From: Desulfatiglandales bacterium
Lineage (GTDB): Bacteria; Desulfobacterota; DSM-4660; Desulfatiglandales; Desulfatiglandaceae
Assembly (NCBI GenBank): GCA_963662465.1
Contig: OY759599.1
Span: 5,952,001-6,016,000, forward strand
DNA length: 64,000 nucleotides
Direction of reading: 5' to 3'
Shown: positions 26,620 to 50,910 of the stretch, piece after piece
How the letters are laid out: the number at the start of each line of letters is the position of its first letter
How positions within the stretch are numbered: the stretch's first letter is position 1
Position numbers and translations under genes: made by a program
The notes under the pieces: generated by a model
Seen by the model: only the letters and a program-made list of their open reading frames with translations
Database searches by the model: none
Told to the model about the DNA's origin: nothing

Positions 26620-27998
26620 TCCGACAATCCAAAAAAGATGCCATTGTGGAATTGAAAAAAACCGGCATGAGTTTGCGCGACATCGCCAAAACCCTGAAGG
26701 CCGGTCGCAATACCGTCACGAAGGTTTTAGATGATCATGACGAAGAGGCGGTACCCCAAAGGAACTCCCGGTATGAAGAACATGTCCCATTGATCCGCGA
26801 GCTTTTCAAGGAATGTAAAGGAAATGCCGTGCGAGTAGCCGAGGAACTGGAAAGCCGCCAACAGATCAAAATCCCTTATCAGAGTCTGACCTGGATTATG
26901 AGAAAGTACGAGATCCGGGAACGTAAAAAAAGACGGGCGGGCCAATACCATTTTAAACCCGGTCAGGAGATGCAGCATGATACGTCACCCCATCTGGTTG
27001 TCATTAATGGGAAAAAAATGTCGACCCAGTGCGCGTCCCTGACCCTGGCCTTTTGCCGAAGGATTTTTATTCAGTATTACCCCTGTTTTACCCGGTTTGA
27101 GTGCAAGGTTTTCCTAAAAAAAGCATTCGAGTTTATGGACGGGGTGTGTTCCCGGTGCATGGTTGACAACACCAATGTTATTGTGGCCGGCGGCACCGGG
27201 CCTGATGCATTGATTGCGCCTGAAATGAAATACTTCGGCGATATGTATGGAACCCGGTTTGAGGCCCATGCTGTAGGAGACGCCAATCGAAGTGCCCGTG
27301 TGGAAAGGCCTTTTCATTTTGTGGAAAACAATTTTCTTCCCGGTAGAACATTTGTTAGCTGGCAGGATTTGAACCGGCAGGCAATCGACTGGTGCCGGAA
27401 TACAAGCGATAAAAAGTTTAAACGGGCTTTAGGGATGACGCCGGATGAGGCCTATGTCATTGAAAAGCCATATCTCATTGATTTACCGGCATACCAGCCG
27501 CCAGTCTATGTGGCAGAACACAGGGTAGCCGATGTTCAGGGATATGTGCACTTGGACACCAACCGCTATTCAGTCCCTGAAGCGCTGATTGGGAACTCCC
27601 TGGAAGTACAGAAACATTGGCTCAAGGTCATCGTTTACGACAAAAACACAAAAGTGGCGGAACATGACCGCATACTGGATAAACGCAACACCCGAACAAC
27701 CCTGCCCGGTCACCATGTTCCCATTCGAAGAAAAAAAGATCCCCGAATCCCTTCAAAAGAAGAACAGCTGTTGACGGGAGAGGATGCCATCCTGGATGAG
27801 TATGTGGCTGAACTGAAGAAAAGAAGTCACGGTCGCGGTGTGGTCAAGTTACGTCGGTTGCTTCATCTGAAACGCACTTATCCCGGGGAACCTTTTTTGA
27901 AAGCCATAACACAGGCGCTTAAATATGGACTTTTTGATTTGTCGCGTCTGGAAAACATTATTCTCGATTATATCGCGGGAGACTTTTTTGATCTATGA
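26616..27998 (+). CDS. istA: IS21 transposase IstA
   Basis: N-terminal HTH plus DDE motifs, 460 aa. Confidence 0.95.
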   Translation: MIRQSKKDAIVELKKTGMSLRDIAKTLKAGRNTVTKVLDDHDEEAVPQRNSRYEEHVPLIRELFKECKGNAVRVAEELESRQQIKIPYQSLTWIMRKYEIRERKKRRAGQYHFKPGQEMQHDTSPHLVVINGKKMSTQCASLTLAFCRRIFIQYYPCFTRFECKVFLKKAFEFMDGVCSRCMVDNTNVIVAGGTGPDALIAPEMKYFGDMYGTRFEAHAVGDANRSARVERPFHFVENNFLPGRTFVSWQDLNRQAIDWCRNTSDKKFKRALGMTPDEAYVIEKPYLIDLPAYQPPVYVAEHRVADVQGYVHLDTNRYSVPEALIGNSLEVQKHWLKVIVYDKNTKVAEHDRILDKRNTRTTLPGHHVPIRRKKDPRIPSKEEQLLTGEDAILDEYVAELKKRSHGRGVVKLRRLLHLKRTYPGEPFLKAITQALKYGLFDLSRLENIILDYIAGDFFDL

Positions 27999-29010: not shown

Positions 29011-29278
29011 TTCCTCAATAAGCATTGCCCTTAACCGAAAAATCTAATCCCCTCTTCTCTGCCATCACCATATTGATGGTATCCTCATCACTGATTCTTC
29101 AACCAGAACGCTACGTGTCTCACCAGCATTTTTAAAATACCATCTGATATACTCTTTCATGCAACCTCTAACAAATTTACAAGAAAACCCTTCTAAAAGG
29201 AAAAGACCAGTGCGCAATATCTGGTTCCGTTTGGAGTAGCAAAACTGGTTCCATTTTGGTTAGCGCCCAAGCCTGTTC

Positions 29279-41450: not shown

Positions 41451-41486
41451 AAAAAAGGGAACATGGCGGTGTCATGTTCCCTTTTT
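41451..41486. terminator. Bidirectional terminator after adk
   Basis: aaaaagggaacatggc...gtcatgttcccttttt. Confidence 0.8.
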
Positions 41487-41624
41487 CTTCCATTCGATTG
41501 CAAAACCGTGCTGATCCGTTTTTTCTATTATCGTACCTGAGCCTGATCCGGCTCGGAGAGCGGCGCCATTCCCAGTATCCGCGCAATAACCTGACCTTTC
41601 TGGGAAAAGACAAAATCAATAAAA
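41455..41624. repeat. Direct repeat, copy 1 (terminator plus the 3' tail of the PstS-like gene)
   Basis: Aligns by eye with 43699-43869, with scattered substitutions. Confidence 0.9.
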
Positions 41625-41807
41625 TTATTTTTGTGAAAACACGTCATTTTTATCCCGATGGTTACAATATTTGAGAAAAGACTTGATCATCGAATAACAA
41701 GGGAGTATGACTCAATAAGGAAAGGGGGTGATAGGAAAAAAATAAGGTTGGAGGGACAAGCGGGAAGAAAAGAGACGTCCGGTTTAAAACTGTAAGGAGC
41801 AAGGAGA

Positions 41808-43148
41808 ATGAAATCCGTTAAATTTACAATAGTTATCGCGTTGGCTTTAACTATCTCCTTAGTCTTGTTTTACGGTGGTCAGATGGCCCGTTCCGCTGAC
41901 GGTGAAAATCATTGCTTCACCTGCCATACGAATGCCCAAAAGCTGATAAAGATCACAAGGGAGATTGCAAAGGCCAACAAGGACAAACCAGGGGGCTCCG
42001 CTGAAACCGAAGGCGAGGGGTGAGGGGGAGACGTGGAGCCGTTGGCTCCGCACGAAAAGTTGTGGGTTGATAGTGCAATAGCCGAGGATGAAAACCATGG
42101 TGAACTTTGCTGTCACGAATGCCATGGTGGCAATCCCAATGATCCAAATTGGAAAACAGCCCATAAGGGCGTAGTTAAAGATCCTTCATATCCAGACGCT
42201 TCCGAGACATGTGGATCGTGCCATGATGAGATTGCGGAGAATTATAAGAGCAGTCTTCACGTGACGCTTTCCCCATTCAAGAAAATGATAGATATGCGGG
42301 CTAATCCAAACAAGGATGTGCATGCCAAGGTGGATGCCGCCAGAGGGTCCCATTGCAATGCCTGTCACAGCAGTTGCGGTCAATGTCATATCAGCCGCCC
42401 TGAGGCAGTGGGTGGCGGCCTGTTGGAGGGTCACCTTTTCCAGAGAAGACCCCCCATGCATACCGTTTGTACGGGATGCCATGGGAGTCGTATCGAAAAA
42501 GAGTATTTTGGCAAGAACAAGGGTATTCCTCCTGACATTCATAAACAGAAATATTTTAGATGCACCAAGTGTCACAAGGCTGATGAAATGCACGGAGACG
42601 GCAAGGCGTATGCCAACAGACATGAGGTGGAGAACGGTCCAAAGTGTTTAGACTGCCACGAGGATATCTACCAGCAAAAAGCGAAAAATCCCAAAAGCCA
42701 CTGGATCCACAAAGATCAGGTCAGTTGTCAGGTCTGCCATTCCATGCCTTACAAGAATTGTTATAGCTGTCATGTTGGAAAAGACAAACAGGGCTTTACA
42801 TTCTATAAGAACAAGGAATCTCCCATTGAGTTCAAGGTGGGTCTAAATCCCCTGCAATCGGAGAAAAGGCCTGAAAAATTTGTCACACTCCGCCATGTTC
42901 CAGTAGATCATAAGACTTTCGATTTCTATGTGAAAAACGGCTTGTCCAACTTCGACTCGTTTCCTAACTGGAAACTTGCCACACCCCATAATATCAGGCG
43001 ACACACACCTCAAAACAAGACCTGTAATAATTGTCACGGCAACACAGCGTTGTTCTTGCTTGAGAAGGATGTTAAGCCGGATTACCGGAAGGCCAACAGG
43101 AATGTTATTGTGCCTCCGGCCCTGGTTCCCCAAAAAAGGAGCAATTAG
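41808..43148 (+). CDS. Exported 11-heme c-type cytochrome, predicted selenoprotein
   Basis: Signal peptide; in-frame TGA at 42021-42023 (EGEG-U-GGDV) joins two ORFs; 11 CxxCH motifs; hairpin 3' of the UGA. Confidence 0.82.
42024..42053 (+). promoter_or_regulatory. Putative bacterial SECIS element
   Basis: gtg-gagcc-gtt-ggctc-cgcac; the G-initiated loop starts 17 nt after the UGA. Confidence 0.65.
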
Positions 43149-43215
43149 TGCAGAGTTTGCTTGCTTGCAAGCTTGGCTTTAAACCCAAAACCCAATTACA
43201 TAAGGAGAAAAGCCG

Positions 43216-43650
43216 ATGAAAAAACGTTCACTTTTTGTATTTGCGCTGGTATTTATGTTCGTCTTCGCCTTTGCTGTTCCTCAAACTATGGCAGAAGATA
43301 TGACTGCCGAAAATTTCGTTGCAGAAGCGAAAAAGGATGTCTGTGAGGTCTCGGTCTCTGATGCCAAGGGGATGCTGGATAAGGGAGGATGTGTTTTTTT
43401 AGATTGCCGGGAACCAAAGGAATTCAAAATGGGGCATGTCCCGGGCGCCGTCAATATCCCCCGTGGGCTGATGGAATGGAAGGTTTCCAAGAAAATTCCG
43501 GATAAGACCGCCAAAATCGTTGTTTACTGTAAGGTAGGGGGCCGGGGTTGCCTATCCGCCTGTACCCTTTGTCGCATGGGTTACAAAAACGTTGTTAACA
43601 TAGCGGGTGGATGGCAGGCATGGGAAAAGGCGGGGTATCCTGTTGAATAG
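43216..43650 (+). CDS. Exported single-domain rhodanese
   Basis: Signal peptide; LDCREPKEF, GHVPGA, active-site loop YCKVGGR, GGWQAW. Confidence 0.9.
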   Translation: MKKRSLFVFALVFMFVFAFAVPQTMAEDMTAENFVAEAKKDVCEVSVSDAKGMLDKGGCVFLDCREPKEFKMGHVPGAVNIPRGLMEWKVSKKIPDKTAKIVVYCKVGGRGCLSACTLCRMGYKNVVNIAGGWQAWEKAGYPVE

Positions 43651-43698: not shown

Positions 43699-43869
43699 AA
43701 GGGAACATGACGATGTCATGTTCCCTTTTTCTTCTATTCGATCGGCAAAACCATGCGGATCCGTTTTTTCTATTATTTTGTCTGAAGCTGCTCCGGCTCA
43801 GGCAGCGGCGCCATTCCCAGTTTTCGCGCAATAGCCTGACCTTTCTGGGAAAAGACAAAATCGATAAAA
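43699..43869. repeat. Direct repeat, copy 2
   Basis: See 41455-41624. Confidence 0.9.
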
Positions 43870-44600
43870 GCCTTTACCGATCCTTTCGGCGTCCCTTTGG
43901 TCACAAAGGAAAACTCCTGAACATAAGGATAGTCTTTGTCTTTTGGTAAAAGGCCGTTAATCTTGATTTTCGTAAGTTCCCGCCGTGCGGTTGTGGCCCC
44001 CTGGGTAATGAAGGAAATAGCCCCTTTGAGGCATGATACGGAATCCATAACCATTGTGGACCGATAGGTCATCAAATCATATTTTATCTCACGACGTTTC
44101 ATGACAACCCGCTGAAAATTTTTAAAAGTGCCGGTATTTTTGTCTGGGATGACAATCACAATGGGCAGATTTTCACCTCCCAATTCCTCCCAATTGGTGA
44201 TATCCCCGCTGAAAATCTCTTCCAGCTGTTTGGATGAAACGTTTTTAACACAACATCCCTCGTTGACAATCACCGCAAGAGGATCCTTGCAAAACGGTAT
44301 TTCCACATAACCCCACTCTTTGTGTCGAGGATAGAGACGTCGCGTAGTGCTTACGATATCACAGAAATCGTTCATCAAACGATTGACTGCCGATGCTGAG
44401 GACGTAATGTATAAATCCACCGGAATCCCTGTCTCTTTTGTAAACGCATCCAATCGTTCATGTTCAAATGCTTCGTAAACCTGGGCGGAGCAACTATATC
44501 GCAATGGCTGCTGGGCCATCACATTCCTCTCGGAAAACCCCCAGTAGCCCAATAGACCCACTAACAATGCCAGGAATAACGTAAAATGTTCTTTTTTCAT
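43773..44600 (-). CDS. PstS-like periplasmic substrate-binding protein
   Basis: DPLAVIVN, IFSGDITNWEELGG, GT..F, FIDFVFS. Confidence 0.8.
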   Translation of the reverse strand: MKKEHFTLFLALLVGLLGYWGFSERNVMAQQPLRYSCSAQVYEAFEHERLDAFTKETGIPVDLYITSSASAVNRLMNDFCDIVSTTRRLYPRHKEWGYVEIPFCKDPLAVIVNEGCCVKNVSSKQLEEIFSGDITNWEELGGENLPIVIVIPDKNTGTFKNFQRVVMKRREIKYDLMTYRSTMVMDSVSCLKGAISFITQGATTARRELTKIKINGLLPKDKDYPYVQEFSFVTKGTPKGSVKAFIDFVFSQKGQAIARKLGMAPLPEPEQLQTK

Positions 44601-44930
44601 AATGACGCCTCCTTTAGTTTTGTTTTCCCATAAAAACTAAGATACTCCATTTCATGTTCTTTGAAAAGCAAAACATGTGCCGAAATCTTCATGGGGGAAA
44701 AAAGCACTTATGTCCGTGGAGAAACTAGGAATTTTTTAAAAAATCAGCGAAGAACGATAATGATCGATTATCGGGACGTCAAATGACTTTACAACCTGTA
44801 AAATCAAGCACAACGGTTAACGATCGGTTAAGCTTTAGCATTAACAGTTGACAGCCAGGTTGCCGACCCTATATTCTTTCCACTTCCGCGACCCTAAAGC
44901 CACAAACATCCTCAAGAAAGGAACGTATAC

Positions 44931-45758
44931 ATGTCTCAAGACCTCATACCACATATTGACCGGTTGATTCTGCAAAGACCTGCCTCCAAAGCCGCACTGG
45001 TCTCATTTCGGGAACTGGCGCTTCTCATGGCCTGGGAAACGCCTGACGTCAAGCCGGTCGAATTTAAAAAGGGAACCCGGGACATTCAGCAACAAGAGGG
45101 ATTCCCACTGTTTTCGAAAGAGGATTTGCCCGTTGATTTCAGCGCTGCATCCCGTCTGCTGAAAAGATTCCTGGCGCACTTGTATACGGCCAACAGAGAT
45201 GACGTGAAGGGGATGAAAAAAGCACTTGAACATGCGGAGGCGGACGGCAAATGGGCCGAGAATCTGTTGAAGGCTATCCTGAAGCAGGATGAAAAGGCCT
45301 TATCACGGATTTCAAAAGAGATCAACCTGGAAACAAAGACGGTTTTCTTCCTGGGACAAACAGCCTTAAGACCTTCCATTCACGGGCTCCGTGATGTACT
45401 GGCTGAAGATATTGATAAAAACGGGTGGAACCATGGCTATTGTCCCCTGTGCGGTTCACAGCCGGACATGGCCTATTTCGAAAAGACCGGCAAGCGATAC
45501 CTTCATTGTGAACTGTGCGGTGAACAATGGCCCTATTCCCGAATCAAATGCCCTTTCTGCAATACCGAAGAACAGGATAAGCTGGGCTATTTTGAGGCTG
45601 AAGGAGAGGAGGGATTTCGCGTCTATTTCTGCCGGGAATGTCGGCGATACATCAAAACAATTGATAAAAGGGCCTTCGAGGAATTGGCGCCCCTGGAACT
45701 GGAAAGCCTGGCTACAATCCATTTAGACATTTTAGCCGGCGAGCATGGTTTTAAGTAG
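44931..45758 (+). CDS. fdhE: Formate dehydrogenase accessory protein FdhE
   Basis: CPLCG, RYLHCELC, RIKCPFC, CRECRRYIK, LATIHLD. Confidence 0.93.
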   Translation: MSQDLIPHIDRLILQRPASKAALVSFRELALLMAWETPDVKPVEFKKGTRDIQQQEGFPLFSKEDLPVDFSAASRLLKRFLAHLYTANRDDVKGMKKALEHAEADGKWAENLLKAILKQDEKALSRISKEINLETKTVFFLGQTALRPSIHGLRDVLAEDIDKNGWNHGYCPLCGSQPDMAYFEKTGKRYLHCELCGEQWPYSRIKCPFCNTEEQDKLGYFEAEGEEGFRVYFCRECRRYIKTIDKRAFEELAPLELESLATIHLDILAGEHGFK

Positions 45759-45766
45759 AAAAACAT

Positions 45767-47398
45767 TTAAGACAACCCGAGACAATTCAGATAGAATTGA
45801 ATGAGCGAGGTTTGTTCATCATGGTGATTTCCGCCCTCTTCCCGTATGGCGGCAAGCAGGTTTTCGGATACAATTCTTGCATCACCGACGCGCCCTGCGC
45901 CGGTCAGTTTCCGAAAAATATAATCATATATCCATGAACGGACAGGAAGACGACTCTCCATAAACGTAGAAACGGCCTTATCCCATTGGCCCTTGTCCAC
46001 CATATGGGCAAGGGCCAGAGATCGGAGGACAACCGGATCACATCGGTTTTCATAGGCAATGGCATAGCCAAGCCCTTTTTCAATGGTTTTCTTGAGTTTA
46101 AATGGGCTTTCCGGGGCACAAAAATAGTAGGGTGCAATATAACCCTCTGATGGCATTCCATACAGATGTTTTGTGTCCGCGCTTTTCTCAATCTCTCGGC
46201 ACAGCCGGGTACCCCTGTATATCCTGCCGCCCACAGTGTATTCGTACCGTCTCAAAATGCCCGGCCTGTATGTTTTCATCTGTTCAATGGAACAATTGAC
46301 GGTCTCATGGGTTTCACCGGGAAGCCCGAAGATCATCGATACGGTGCAGGGCAGGCCGTTTCGTTCACAGATCTCCAGTGTGTTCTGAATATCCCGCCGG
46401 CGGTATGAAGCATAATTTCGCTTCAGTACCCTGTCCGAAAAACTATCACAGGCCAGGATGACGGAAAAATTCGCCTCAAACAGACGCTTTGCAAACGCCT
46501 CATCAAAAGGCCTGGGTAGGAACTGTGAGGTAAATCCAAACCGCTCGTGCAGACCTTCATGGATAATTCTTTCAATCAAGCGGGAACAGTAACTGAGATC
46601 GGGAAGATTAAATTCCGTATCCACAAAAAATATTTCCCTGACATCCTCATGCATTCTGGATATGGCATGCATTTCCTCGAGGACCTGGTCCATCTCCCTG
46701 AAAACAATCGAAGTCCCCTCGATAATCGGTTCTACGCAGTAGCTGCACCTCTGATTGCACCCCCGCTTTACCTGCACGGGAAGACCTGTTGTTTCCAGAG
46801 CAAACCGGAATTTTTCTTCCCGTATGGTTGGAAACACGCCGTCAGCAAAAGCATACGCTTTCCTGGAATTGGCTTTAAACTCGCCGTCAAAATAGGTAAG
46901 GCCACTGATCTTTTTCATCTTCTCCCTGTCGGGAAAAGCTTCGATGAACTGCCTGAAAGGTTCCTCACCTTCGCCTGCTACCCCAAACTCGATACCCAGG
47001 TATTTCAAGATTGCCTGAGGTGCAATGGTAAATCCACCGCCACCACCGACGATCGGAATTTCAGGAGCATGTTTTTTGATCAACTCCACAATTCTCTTGA
47101 TTTCAGGCAGAAAATAGAAAGTCCTGAAATCACGCCCCACGTAGTCGCCATAGGATTCACAGGACAAACACGTATCCAGATTTCGTATGCCCAGGCCTAT
47201 CACCCGCGGCCGATTTTCCGTCAAAAGATTCAACAGATTTATTTCCAGATCGGCGTCGGGAAGAAAAGGATATTCAACCGCTACATGATGTCCACGTTTA
47301 CGGAGGTAATTGGCAATGACATCTAATCCGAAGGGATAAACCTGCTTGATAAGATAATACGGATCCGTATAGAGGAGCAGGATGCTTGATTGTTTCAT
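45767..47398 (-). CDS. Cobalamin-binding radical SAM protein
   Basis: N-terminal B12-binding-like domain; RGCNQRCSYC; FGLPGET. Confidence 0.88.
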   Translation of the reverse strand: MKQSSILLLYTDPYYLIKQVYPFGLDVIANYLRKRGHHVAVEYPFLPDADLEINLLNLLTENRPRVIGLGIRNLDTCLSCESYGDYVGRDFRTFYFLPEIKRIVELIKKHAPEIPIVGGGGGFTIAPQAILKYLGIEFGVAGEGEEPFRQFIEAFPDREKMKKISGLTYFDGEFKANSRKAYAFADGVFPTIREEKFRFALETTGLPVQVKRGCNQRCSYCVEPIIEGTSIVFREMDQVLEEMHAISRMHEDVREIFFVDTEFNLPDLSYCSRLIERIIHEGLHERFGFTSQFLPRPFDEAFAKRLFEANFSVILACDSFSDRVLKRNYASYRRRDIQNTLEICERNGLPCTVSMIFGLPGETHETVNCSIEQMKTYRPGILRRYEYTVGGRIYRGTRLCREIEKSADTKHLYGMPSEGYIAPYYFCAPESPFKLKKTIEKGLGYAIAYENRCDPVVLRSLALAHMVDKGQWDKAVSTFMESRLPVRSWIYDYIFRKLTGAGRVGDARIVSENLLAAIREEGGNHHDEQTSLIQFYLNCLGLS

Positions 47399-47844: not shown

Positions 47845-50800
47845 ATGGACATTACGCGTCGTGATTTCTTCAAGATCACAGGGGCTTCTGCTGCGGGAGC
47901 GGCGATTATGGGTCTGGGCCTTGATTTGAAGCCACTCAAATCCCATGCGCAAACCCTAAAACTTCGCTTCGCCAAAGAAACCACCAGCATCTGCTGTTAT
48001 TGTGCGGTGGGGTGTGGCGTTATCTGCAGCACCGGAGAAGCAGGAGCAGGAAAGATCATCAACATCGAGGGGGACCCGGATCATCCGGTAAATGAAGGGG
48101 CTCTCTGTGCCAAAGGAGCGGCGTTGAGTCAATTGGTCAACAATGACGGCCGGTTGACGATCCCCCTTTATCGGGCGCCTTACAGTACTGAGTGGCGGAA
48201 AGTATCCTGGGACTGGGCACTTACGAGTATCGCGGAAAGGGTCAAGAAGACTCGGGATGCCGACTTTGAACGTAAAAACGCCAAAGGCCAGGTGGTCAAC
48301 CGCACCACGGCTATTGCCAGTGTGGGGAGTTCAGCCCTGGACAATGAGGAGTGCTGGCTGATACAGGCCCTCATGAGGTCGCTGGGGCTGGTCTACATTG
48401 AACACCAGGCCCGTATCTGACACAGCGCTACTGTTGCGGCTCTGGCAGAGTCGTTCGGACGCGGCGCAATGACGAATCACTGGATCGACATCCGAAACAG
48501 TGACTGCATTCTGATCATGGGTTCCAATGCGGCTTCGAATCACCCCATTTCCTTTAAATGGATTACTGAGGCCATGAAGCGTGGCGGCAAGTTAATCAGC
48601 GTTGATCCCCGTTTTACCCAGACCTCAGCGAAGGCTGATTTTTACACTGCTTTGAGATCGGGGACGGATATCGCCTTCCTGGGCGGGATGATCAAATATA
48701 TCCTCGATAACAACAAATACTTCAAAGAGTACGTGTCCGAATATACCAATGCCGCCTTCATCATCGCTGACAGCTATGATTTCAATGACGGTCTCTTCTC
48801 CGGTTACGATGCTGAAAAGCGTAAGTATGACAAGAGCAAGTGGGGTTTCGTAAAGGACGAGAAAGGAATCCCGAAGAAAGATCGCACCCTCCAGAACCCC
48901 CGTTGTGTATTCCAACTGATCCAAAAACACTACAGCCGCTATAACCTGGATACGGTTTCAGCCATCACCGGAACCCCGAAAGAGGATCTGGTGAAAGTCT
49001 ATGAGATGTACTCAGCCACGGGCCGGCAAGGACAAGCCGGGACCATCATGTATGCCATGGGTTGGACCCAGCACACGGTCGGCGTCCAGAATATCAGAAG
49101 CATGGCCATTATCCAGTTGTTGTTAGGAAATATGGGGGTAGCAGGCGGCGGCGTCAACGCCCTGAGGGGAGAATCCAATGTTCAGGGTTCTACGGATCAC
49201 TGCATTCTGTTCCACATCTGGCCGGGTTATCTGAAGACCCCAACGGCTTCCCTGCCCACTTTGGCTGCCTACAACGAAAAATTTACGCCCAAAACCAACG
49301 ATCCCTTAAGCGCCAACTGGTGGGGGAATTATCCCAAGTACAGCGTTAGCCTGCTCAAGTCGTATTTCGGGGACAAGGCGACTGCGGCCAATGATTTTGG
49401 GTATAACTGGCTCCCAAAACTGGATGACGGTGTGACCTATTCATGGCTTGATCTCTTTGACGCCATGTACAGGGGAAAATTCAAAGGCCTTTTTGCCTGG
49501 GGCATGAACCCTGCGGCTTCGGGGGCCAACGCCAATAAGAACCGGCAGTCCATGTCAAAATTGGACTGGATGGTCAATGTTAATATCTTTGACAATGAAA
49601 CCGGTTCTTTCTGGAAAGGTCCGGGCATGGATTCCAAGAAGATAAAGACAGAGGTTTTTATGCTCCCCTGTGCCGTTTCAGTGGAAAAGGAAGGATCCAT
49701 CACCAACAGCGGACGCTGGATGCAGTGGCGTTATAAGGCCGCGAATCCTCCTGCCCAGGCATGGTCTGATGGTAATATTCTGGTAAAATTAGGGGAAAAG
49801 CTTAAAGATCTCTACAAGGGGGGCGGGGTCTTCTCCGAGCCGATCGTCAACCTGAAGTGGGATTACACCCAGCATGGCAAGTTTGACGCCCACGCCATGG
49901 CCAAGGAAATCAACGGCTACTTCCTCAAGGACATGACGATAAAAGGAAAGGCATTCAAGAAGGGAGATCTTGTACCGAGCTTCGCATATCTCCAGAGCGA
50001 TGGTTCCACCAGCAGCGCCAACTGGCTGTACTGTAACTCCTATACGGGTAAGGGTAACATGTCTGCCAGGCGAAAGAGGGAGGAATCGGGCATAGGGCTC
50101 AATCCTGAGTGGGCCTGGTGCTGGCCGGTTAACCGCCGCATCATTTACAACCGAGCATCCGTTGACAAAACCGGGAAACCCTGGGACAAGGAACACCCGG
50201 TGATCGAGTTCAAGGGAAAGGTGGAAAACGGCAAGTATGTGTCCAATAAGTGGGTCGGAGATGTTCCCGACGGGGGCTGGTACCCCATGCAGAACCCAGA
50301 CGGGTCTGAGCGTACGGACACCAAATATCCCTTCATCATGAAACCGGAGGGCCATGCCCATGTGTTTGGACCGGGCCGTGCGGACGGGCCGTTTTCGGAG
50401 CACTACGAGCCGGTGGAAAGCCCTGTTTCGAAACAGCCTTTCTCCAGTCAACTGGCCAGTCCCGTTGCGGTCACATACGGCACAAACATGGATATCTACG
50501 CGTCGGATAATCCCAAGTATCCCTATGTGTGCAGCACCTACCGTGTCTGTGAACACTGGCAGACCGGTATCATGACCCGGTGGCAGCCGTGGCTCCTTGA
50601 AGCCCAGCCCCAGCTCTTTGTGGAGTTGAGCAAGGAACTTGGCGTTGAATTAGGGATCAAGAATGGAGAGAAGGTTACGGTGGAATCGGCCCGCGGCAAG
50701 GTAGAGGCCGTTGCCATGGTGACCATCCGGTTCAAACCCTTCACGATTCAGGGGAAAACCGTACACCAGGTAGGTCTCCCATGGCATTTTGGATGGGTCC

Positions 50801-50910
50801 ATCCCAAGGATGGCGGCGATTCAGCCAACCTGCTGACACCTTCGGCTGGTGATCCTAATACCAGGATTCCCGAAACCAAGGCCTTCATGGTCAATATCAG
50901 AAAGGTATAA
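47845..50910 (+). CDS. fdnG: Periplasmic Mo/W formate dehydrogenase alpha subunit, selenocysteine-containing
   Basis: Tat motif TRRDFFK, CCYCAVGC, EHQARI-U(TGA 48418)-HSATV, then the SECIS-like hairpin gcggctctggcagagtcgt. Confidence 0.96.

Follow-up and report, generated by a model that had tools for sequence, protein, structure and literature searches.

The locus described here lies in a stretch of 64,000 nucleotides (nt) from a Desulfatiglandales bacterium (assembly GCA_963662465.1, contig OY759599.1, positions 5,952,001 to 6,016,000), hereafter the window, whose numbering is used for all positions without a contig prefix. On its forward strand, two open reading frames (ORFs; 41808..42023 and 42033..43148) share one frame, of which the TGA at 42021-42023 is the sole break. 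Once this TGA is read through as selenocysteine (Sec, U), the frame is open from 41808 to 43148 and yields a product of 446 residues, as an original prediction made from the letters of the DNA had proposed. Around the site the product reads ...TEGEG-U-GGDVEPLAPHEK..., with the local motif GEG-U-GG. The two halves also divide the features of a c-type cytochrome in the way described at the time. The first half carries a hydrophobic N-terminus (MKSVKFTIVIALALTISLVLFYGG...), a signal or anchor that forms a helix from residue 2 to 25 in the AlphaFold2 (AF2) model discussed below, together with a single CxxCH motif (CFTCH, C36-H40), while the second carries the other ten of the eleven motifs and no signal. 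Accordingly, the gene-caller version of the product, which starts from the GTG at 42033 and begins MEPLAPHEK, is left without an export signal. Orthologue matches run across the TGA, and the hydrophobic N-terminus is seen in all full orthologues; together with the c-type heme motifs, it suggests that the cytochrome is exported. The next gene (43216-43650) encodes a 144-residue rhodanese (PF00581, 85.6 bits versus a cut-off of 22.2) with an N-terminal signal-like segment and a CKVGGRG loop, which confirmed the predicted pairing of the cytochrome with an exported rhodanese. The features of the locus are collected in Table 1.

Table 1. Features of the cytochrome-rhodanese locus, in window coordinates, with the observations on which each assignment is based.
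Feature	Position	Strand	Basis
Coding sequence of the eleven-heme cytochrome c selenoprotein, 446 residues, stop TAG 43146-43148	41808..43148	+	Frame with TGA = U, 11 CxxCH, orthologues, AF2 model at pLDDT 93.6
Shine-Dalgarno-like AAGGAG, 8 nt 5' of the ATG	41794..41799	+	Read from sequence
Signal peptide or membrane anchor, residues 1 to ~29	41808..41894	+	Hydrophobic N-terminus in full orthologues; modelled helix 2-25
UGA selenocysteine codon, Sec72, motif GEG-U-GG	42021..42023	+	107 TGA, 5 TGC, 1 TGG and 1 partial among 114 unique loci
SECIS-type hairpin, 8-bp stem and GUU loop 42041-42043	42033..42051	+	Pairing, covariation, lowest codon entropy; Cys forms without it
Exported single-domain rhodanese, 144 residues, active-site loop C105-KVGGR-G	43216..43650	+	PF00581, 85.6 bits
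Intrinsic-terminator-like hairpin and T run, end of the two-gene operon	43699..43727	+	Terminator scan
Direct repeat of ~170 nt, upstream copy, terminator-like hairpin at its start	41455..41624	+	Repeat comparison
Direct repeat, downstream copy, 87-88% identical	43699..43869	+	Repeat comparison

The behavior of the codon across genomes argues for selenocysteine. Among 209 genomes of this order, a translated search (E <= 1e-10) found 64 match rows in 62 genomes, and in 50 of these rows the match crosses exactly one TGA, at 46-100% identity. The 14 stop-free rows comprise one TGG orthologue, five distant homologues (37-39% identity), two C-terminal fragments, and six weak partial matches to other cytochromes. 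When the phylum was sampled, matches were found in 44 of 401 genomes, with the TGA present in 46 of 47 rows and down to 33% identity; the sole TGA-free row is a fragment starting at residue 157. The 153 rows that were fetched reduce to 114 unique loci, in which the aligned site codon is TGA (107), TGC (5), TGG (1), or partial (1). In the alignment, the TGA forms share GEG-U-GG, the five distant TGC forms have EG-C-GG, and a database protein at 60% identity (P0232) likewise has Cys at the site (GEW-C-GG). In a 40-sequence alignment, residue 72 is the only conserved Cys/Sec outside the heme motifs, and purifying selection acts on the one frame before as well as after the UGA. Thus, the homologues with TGA or Cys and two-sided conservation that were anticipated for a true Sec site are indeed there. 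As for the residues that had been named as speaking against Sec (Trp, Gly, or Arg), they are not general at the site; Trp does occur, at one of the 114 loci and with the hairpin kept.

This Trp form (TGG; locus L043, protein P0237) is a close orthologue from a genome that consists of a single 3.18-Mb contig (G024). The hairpin sequence is intact, and a rhodanese was not found within 2 kb downstream. Sec may have been lost recently here, the system may be in decay, or the assembly may be in error.

A single frame across the UGA is also visible in contigs from two metatranscriptome runs of one study, which are 90-99% like the window and bridge the codon (41919-42397 in record 1, 41795-42238 in record 9). 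None of the listed differences falls within 42015-42061, and nearly all of those listed, on both sides, lie on third positions of the one frame. Of the sampled words, only fractions of 0.09 (X1) and 0.05 (X2) are present in the two runs, and the parts of the stretch that they leave uncovered are uninformative.

The genome itself (8.16 Mb) holds the complete selABCD set that had been named as a check on the Sec reading. The selB (382 bits), selA (614 bits), and selD (373 bits) genes all score above their cut-offs, and the tRNA-Sec gene selC reaches 70.7 bits versus a gathering score of 47. The selD gene (C1:5156011-5156934) has an in-frame TGA, that is, it is of the selenoprotein form itself.

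A bacterial Sec insertion sequence (SECIS) is recognized, following the bSECISearch literature, as a hairpin shortly after the UGA with a G in its apical loop. The hairpin at 42033-42051 fits this description: its arms, GUGGAGCC (42033-42040) and GGCUCCGC (42044-42051), enclose the loop GUU (42041-42043), which confirmed the predicted G-initiated loop starting 17 nt past the UGA. By folding energy alone the hairpin does not stand out (z = -0.04), and the argument for it is accordingly comparative, drawn from other genomes. In 36 TGA orthologues, 97.7% of the hairpin cells are paired and four pairs have changed on both sides, all four of them in one divergent sequence (L049); none of 500 shuffles was as good, and slid registers were 25-50% paired. 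The 107 TGA loci hold 57 distinct hairpins at the same place, and in 92 loci the loop is a GUU triloop, which begins at a distance from the UGA of exactly 17 nt in 84 loci and of 20 nt in eight. The 34 distinct stems with a GUU loop are 89% paired, as compared to a mean of 76% (maximum 82%) for shuffled arms and 38-49% for shifted registers. Within these stems, pair 3 alternates between GC (19) and UA (15), and pair 4 between CG (20) and AU (9). The most distant members carry other G/U-rich loops (GGUCCG, GUCU) on unrelated GC-rich stems, and the Cys forms are without the hairpin. In addition, the hairpin codons (76-82) form the window of lowest codon entropy in the gene, with 0.25 bits versus 1.27 bits for other conserved columns (170 conserved-residue columns, Mann-Whitney p = 6e-6; the sequences are related, and the contrast is one of columns within the same sequences).

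The window contains a second UGA of this type, in fdnG (48418-48420; EHQARI-U-HSATV). The original prediction held that fdnG shows the same UGA/SECIS arrangement. It is indeed of the same kind, a UGA followed by a hairpin, although not identical, the loop being GGC and beginning 23 nt after the UGA (energy z = -0.36).

Were the UGA instead a true stop, the locus would comprise either two genes, for a monoheme peptide of 71 residues and a cytoplasmic protein of 371 residues, or a pseudogene. Gene callers do annotate it in this manner, 118 of the best 120 database matches are forms of 337-378 residues that cover 76-83% of the query, and the folding energy of the hairpin is, taken alone, unremarkable. 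However, cytochrome c maturation needs export, so that a c-type cytochrome with ten hemes but no export signal would fail to mature. Neither would a stop account for the retention of TGA at nearly all loci with Cys as its alternative, for the covariation and synonymous constraint of the hairpin, or for purifying selection on the frame both 5' and 3' of the codon. We therefore consider a true stop extremely improbable, and the assignment of the UGA as selenocysteine, with the two ORFs forming one eleven-heme protein, as close to certain for a computational call. SelB would read the codon with the aid of the hairpin; this decoding step is part of a broader explanation, set out below, toward which we lean as a whole.

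What kind of protein is it? The original prediction had recognized no characterized family with such a layout, and indeed, no curated family fits the protein. An NCBIfam scan (E <= 0.01) gave no fitting model: the best match, ExtM, fell far short of its cut-off (42.6 bits versus 800) and probably reflects a general resemblance among multiheme proteins, and the C-terminal piece matched GSU2203 with 30.7 bits versus 325. Pfam returned generic multiheme domains only, sequence and profile searches of the PDB local heme-motif matches only, and a search of the ESM Atlas generic cytochrome clusters only, with no structure model of this protein among its entries. A 2026 review of prokaryotic selenoproteomes names three cytochrome-type families in the passages that mention cytochromes, namely ExtKL (NF040886), the GSU2204 family (NF041027), and OTR (TIGR04315). 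None of these three matched in the NCBIfam scan at E <= 0.01.

A relative is nevertheless suggested by the modelled structure. A model from a 40-sequence alignment was unusable, with a predicted local distance difference test (pLDDT) of 48.5, as compared to a pLDDT of 93.6 and a predicted template modelling score (pTM) of 0.86 with 93 sequences. Against 48,161 chains, VIA-align singled out one outlier for this model, 1sp3_A, an octaheme cytochrome c of Shewanella (Z 9.3, root-mean-square deviation 4.5 Å, 266 residues). The alignment places model residues 94-446 along residues 1-437 of the 1sp3 chain, and all other chains stayed at Z <= 4.2; a Foldseek search of the model against the PDB gave no match at E <= 0.001. 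We take 1sp3 to be the enzyme named OTR, with an active-site heme that presumably has a Lys ligand and a Cys nearby. Comparison of the eleven-heme family with the OTR family by hhalign gave 98.5% probability (E = 3.5e-15, 179 columns), with heme motifs 3-9 of the eleven-heme protein corresponding to OTR motifs 1-7. For the OTR family we had matches in 64 of 301 genomes of the phylum, 44 of them above the TIGR04315 cut-off (375 bits). Many have one TGA, and the Sec or Cys lies in an NNF-U/C motif ~10 residues before the second heme motif. By sequence and modelled fold, then, the eleven-heme protein is a distant OTR relative, with its predicted Sec on an N-terminal extension of ~125 residues that also holds two extra hemes and is absent from OTR.

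A true OTR-family selenoprotein is encoded elsewhere in the same genome, outside the window (L194; C1:6200577-6201848, minus strand; TIGR04315 517 bits, NNF-U). The organism thus holds both the OTR type and the eleven-heme type.

The ligands of the hemes provide a further clue. In the 40-sequence alignment, all eleven CxxCH motifs are invariant, yet of the His residues outside these motifs only nine are invariant and one nearly so. With fewer conserved His residues than hemes, at least one heme is without a conserved His as its sixth ligand.

The rhodanese gene is a near-constant companion of the cytochrome gene. For this analysis, a hidden Markov model (HMM) was built from the rhodanese partners and searched within the fetched flanks of three locus sets. 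In the first, a rhodanese lies downstream at 40 of 43 loci, the misses being L034, the Trp form L043, and L040, which has only 164 nt of downstream DNA. In contigs from one genome per species, the partner is present at 70 of 80 loci, with two of the ten misses lacking downstream DNA. Among OTR-family loci, in contrast, it was found at 0 of 21. In a Pfam annotation of 21 loci with flanks of ~8 kb, the rhodanese directly follows the cytochrome in 20, and tblastn found the gene in the remaining one. Retention of the rhodanese down to 33% identity, together with its absence next to the 21 OTR genes, argues for a specific partnership. The partner has a single rhodanese domain in close orthologues and tandem domains in homologues at 33-40% identity; its active-site Cys is conserved in 38 of the 39 partner sequences, and the remaining one is aligned on the first domain of a tandem protein.

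Other arrangements of these modules also occur. In the database protein P0274, a PKD and two rhodanese domains are fused to the cytochrome body. P0272 and P0273 begin just past the UGA and run on into eight further hemes, with P0273 adding a cytochrome b561 domain. At four loci with 33-37% identity (L074, L077, L082, and L085), the gene order is Sec-cytochrome, tandem rhodanese, a multiheme cytochrome of 610-760 residues, a second rhodanese, and a cytochrome c7-type protein of ~620 residues, which in L074 also carries b561. Judging from its gene content, this cluster looks like a complete electron path from quinol to sulfur. An apparent 678-residue cytochrome-rhodanese fusion at L078 was discarded as a spurious long ORF in high-GC DNA, since the rhodanese has its own start and signal peptide.

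Our explanation of the pair builds on MccSep of Geobacter sulfurreducens, which is ExtKL (GSU2937-2936), a periplasmic Sec-containing pentaheme reductase of polysulfide and also selenite (Mihara et al. 2026, PMC13510729; Jahan et al. 2018, PMC5877670). There, the Sec is carried on a mobile loop and acts next to a heme with His/Cys ligation (PMC13510729). By analogy, and from gene order and the one fusion protein, we suggest that the cytochrome and the rhodanese together reduce sulfane sulfur in the periplasm without molybdenum, the rhodanese serving as carrier, and we hold this somewhat probable. The two proteins would be made from one transcript and act as a two-protein system. The rhodanese Cys would take up a sulfur atom from polysulfide or thiosulfate and hold it as a persulfide; Sec72 would then attack the bound sulfur to form a selenenyl-sulfide, and electrons from the heme chain, supplied by the periplasmic cytochrome pool or by a quinol-oxidizing cytochrome, would free sulfide and restore the selenolate. 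We borrow this chemistry from MccSep. Everything that follows Sec insertion is inferred, from the catalytic part played by Sec72 and the transfer of sulfur by the rhodanese to the choice of substrate and the direction in which the reaction runs. The original prediction, in which a Sec-dependent module performs redox chemistry on polysulfide, thiosulfate, or selenium oxyanions in the periplasm, is plausible, and the remote homology to OTR and the near-obligate rhodanese partner allow the functional proposal to be better framed.

Several observations weigh against this explanation. The OTR columns of Sec97 (Sec/Cys) and Lys89 (invariant) align with A174 and P166, which are non-conserved in the eleven-heme family, so that the OTR active site is not simply transferable. 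Among 58 diverse full-length relatives, Cys or Sec occupies the column in 33 and lies one position off in three, whereas in the other ~22 the site is deleted or taken by various residues, none of them Cys or Sec. No consistent replacement by His or Tyr was seen in these (three have Tyr). The presence of Sec/Cys is thus the mark of a sub-clade, and the fold itself can do without it. Nor is the partnership without exceptions: L034 has the TGA form yet a rhodanese was not found within 1.5 kb, and L043 is without one as well. No dedicated quinol dehydrogenase lies beside the pair in the window. Finally, the metatranscriptome contigs come from relatives and from one study whose libraries may contain DNA, making their support for expression weak.

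With these points in mind, other functions have to be considered. The cytochrome could act like OTR, reducing tetrathionate, thiosulfate, nitrite, or hydroxylamine directly at a heme, with the rhodanese being an accessory only, for detoxification or sulfur scavenging. OTR is the sole clear structural relative as well as a remote homologue, the count of conserved His residues is compatible with an open-coordination catalytic heme, and NrfA and OTR are called promiscuous for nitrogen and sulfur substrates in the discussion of the MccSep paper (PMC13510729). Set against this, the catalytic Sec/Cys and Lys positions of OTR are not conserved here, and the rhodanese neighbor, kept to 33% identity, is foreign to the OTR-family loci examined; we regard an OTR-like action as fairly unlikely. 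A similar tension surrounds the direction of the reaction. In the manner of TsdA and SoxAX, the same pair might oxidize sulfide, persulfide, or thiosulfate and pass the electrons to the periplasmic cytochrome pool, for instance during sulfur disproportionation. The family occurs in Desulfobacterota lineages, and in the MccSep paper the chemistry of Sec/Cys with heme is related to the TsdA and SoxAX reactions run backwards (PMC13510729). Yet Sox/Tsd context is absent from the loci examined, the fusions and neighbors are quinol-side modules (cytochrome b561) that are typical of reductive branches, though possibly reversible, and the only characterized Sec multiheme enzyme, MccSep, is a reductase (PMC13510729). 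Oxidation is therefore distinctly improbable in our view.

The substrate, too, has been weighed. A reductase of selenium or tellurium oxyanions, or a selenium-handling module in which the rhodanese carries selenium, would be in line with the best NCBIfam match, ExtM of the 'selenite/tellurite reduction operon', were that match not so far below its cut-off that generic multiheme similarity probably accounts for it. Rhodaneses are able to carry selenium. MccSep reduces selenite as well, although selenite is its poorer substrate (PMC13510729). Because the family is so widespread in lineages of sulfidic sediments, an abundant sulfur substrate fits better, and we deem a selenium function very unlikely.

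Beyond the sulfane sulfur reductase that we favor, the evidence can be joined in a bolder, speculative reading that we consider quite unlikely to hold in full. Sec72 would be the distal ligand, or an immediate neighbor, of the heme without a conserved distal His, making it the first natural selenolate-ligated c-type heme. The role of the cytochrome would then be that of a 'protein persulfide reductase' dedicated to regenerating a periplasmic rhodanese, and the pair would be a complete molybdenum-free thiosulfate/polysulfide reductase in wide use by sulfate reducers and the syntrophic partners of methane oxidizers.

The family is widespread and mis-annotated, with nearly all of its entries in public databases truncated to ~371 residues. 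It accounts for at least 587 stretches in one-genome-per-species contigs and for 1,705 protein clusters at E <= 1e-20, in addition to the 44 of 401 sampled phylum genomes, and it includes the cultured strains Desulfosarcina widdelii PP31 and Dethiosulfatarculus sandiegensis SPR. Short copies are named 'hypothetical', 'cytochrome c3 family', or 'thiosulfate/3-mercaptopyruvate sulfurtransferase'. Many bear the last of these as a JGI label even though no rhodanese domain is in their precomputed Pfam list; the label was probably carried over from the neighbor or from rare fusions. A prior description of an eleven-heme Sec family was not found in searches of a literature collection that includes few subscription journals, and Data S1 and S2 of the MccSep paper or the BSepDB tables could list such genes.

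If our explanation is correct, a large group of anaerobic sediment bacteria carries an unrecognized selenium-dependent respiratory enzyme, and metabolic reconstructions of sulfur cycling would have to be corrected. It would represent a second, independent solution beside MccSep by which Sec and heme reduce sulfur-sulfur bonds, and one in which the OTR scaffold was reused with the reactive residue shifted to a new segment. The selenoprotein catalogues, whose cytochromes, going by the 2026 review, are ExtKL, the GSU2204 family, and OTR only, would gain a new family. The compact two-gene system would also be directly testable in the cultured strains.

Turning to the surroundings of the locus, the direct repeat of ~170 nt flanks exactly the cytochrome-rhodanese pair, each copy opening with a terminator-like hairpin, and the whole genome has no copies beyond these two. 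Its presence at both edges of the module suggests that the two genes were inserted into, or duplicated with, an intergenic terminator region. Scans for sigma-70 promoters and terminators gave nothing above shuffles except the terminator at 43699. A sigma-54 promoter had no match in 41625-41807, and matches across the window stayed below chance expectation. A near-consensus sigma-54 promoter-like site with one mismatch lies at 44667-44682 (minus strand), upstream of a PBP-like gene (43773-44600, minus strand). At five orthologous loci (L066, L070, L072, L073, and L076), a regulator with PAS, sigma-54 activator, and HTH_8 domains adjoins the cytochrome gene, mostly in divergent orientation; it is not in the window. 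An Rfam scan of the window at the gathering threshold found tRNA-Pro only. Elsewhere in the window, two pairs of identical 16-mers (63-78 and 26819-26834; 2482-2497 and 29238-29253) share an offset of 26,756 nt, which hints at a long direct duplication.

The fdnG gene (47845-50910, plus strand), encoding a periplasmic formate dehydrogenase with a twin-arginine translocation (Tat) signal and Sec, begins ~4 kb downstream of the pair. In between are an fdhE-like gene (44931-45758) and a B12/radical-SAM gene (45767-47398, minus strand), which places fdhE and fdnG 1.3-4 kb downstream. In some orthologous loci (L068 and five more), fdnG comes straight after the rhodanese, and this linkage may thus exceed chance.

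Among known systems, the division of labor proposed here resembles that of Sud and Psr in Wolinella succinogenes, where a small periplasmic carrier of the rhodanese type passes sulfur from polysulfide on to the terminal reductase. That reductase, Psr, is a molybdopterin enzyme bound to the membrane, whereas here a Sec multiheme cytochrome without a molybdenum subunit would take its place. The Psr enzyme class is also named in the discussion of the MccSep paper (PMC13510729). In TsdA and SoxAX, as the same paper describes them (PMC13510729), sulfur-sulfur chemistry likewise takes place at a c-type heme with a reactive chalcogen residue; these proteins are di- or triheme, use Cys instead of Sec, are mostly oxidative, and have no detectable similarity to the eleven-heme protein. 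The OTR family (TIGR04315; 1sp3 from Shewanella oneidensis) stands closer, as a periplasmic multiheme enzyme of sulfur and nitrogen compounds with many selenoprotein members, and the 2026 review lists it as a selenoprotein family. It differs from the eleven-heme protein in having eight hemes, in placing its Sec/Cys before heme 2 together with a conserved Lys and not on an N-terminal extension, and in lacking the neighboring rhodanese at the 21 loci examined.

The precedent that the original prediction had seen in ext clusters, of a multiheme selenoprotein near a rhodanese, is real, ExtKL being MccSep and ExtH being rhodanese-like. MccSep and the eleven-heme protein are both multiheme c-type cytochromes with one UGA-encoded Sec, a SECIS-like hairpin, a database entry that is split at the UGA, and a rhodanese-like gene in the cluster. 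By sequence comparison, the two are not homologous: neither MccSep nor NF040886 matched the eleven-heme protein in the NCBIfam scan (E <= 0.01) or in the PDB sequence and profile searches. The heme count of MccSep is five as compared to eleven, and its Sec is carried by the D-G-U-P loop of an Ig-like domain at the C-terminus, whereas the Sec described here is residue 72 of 446 in the N-terminal GEG-U-GG loop. MccSep also needs the heme-ligating Cys239, while the eleven-heme family is without a second conserved non-motif Cys. Finally, ExtH is a protein of 49 kDa that is separated from ExtKL by extI and extJ, unlike the small rhodanese encoded by the very next gene. Across these differences, MccSep serves as our working model of how Sec and heme together may cleave S-S bonds.

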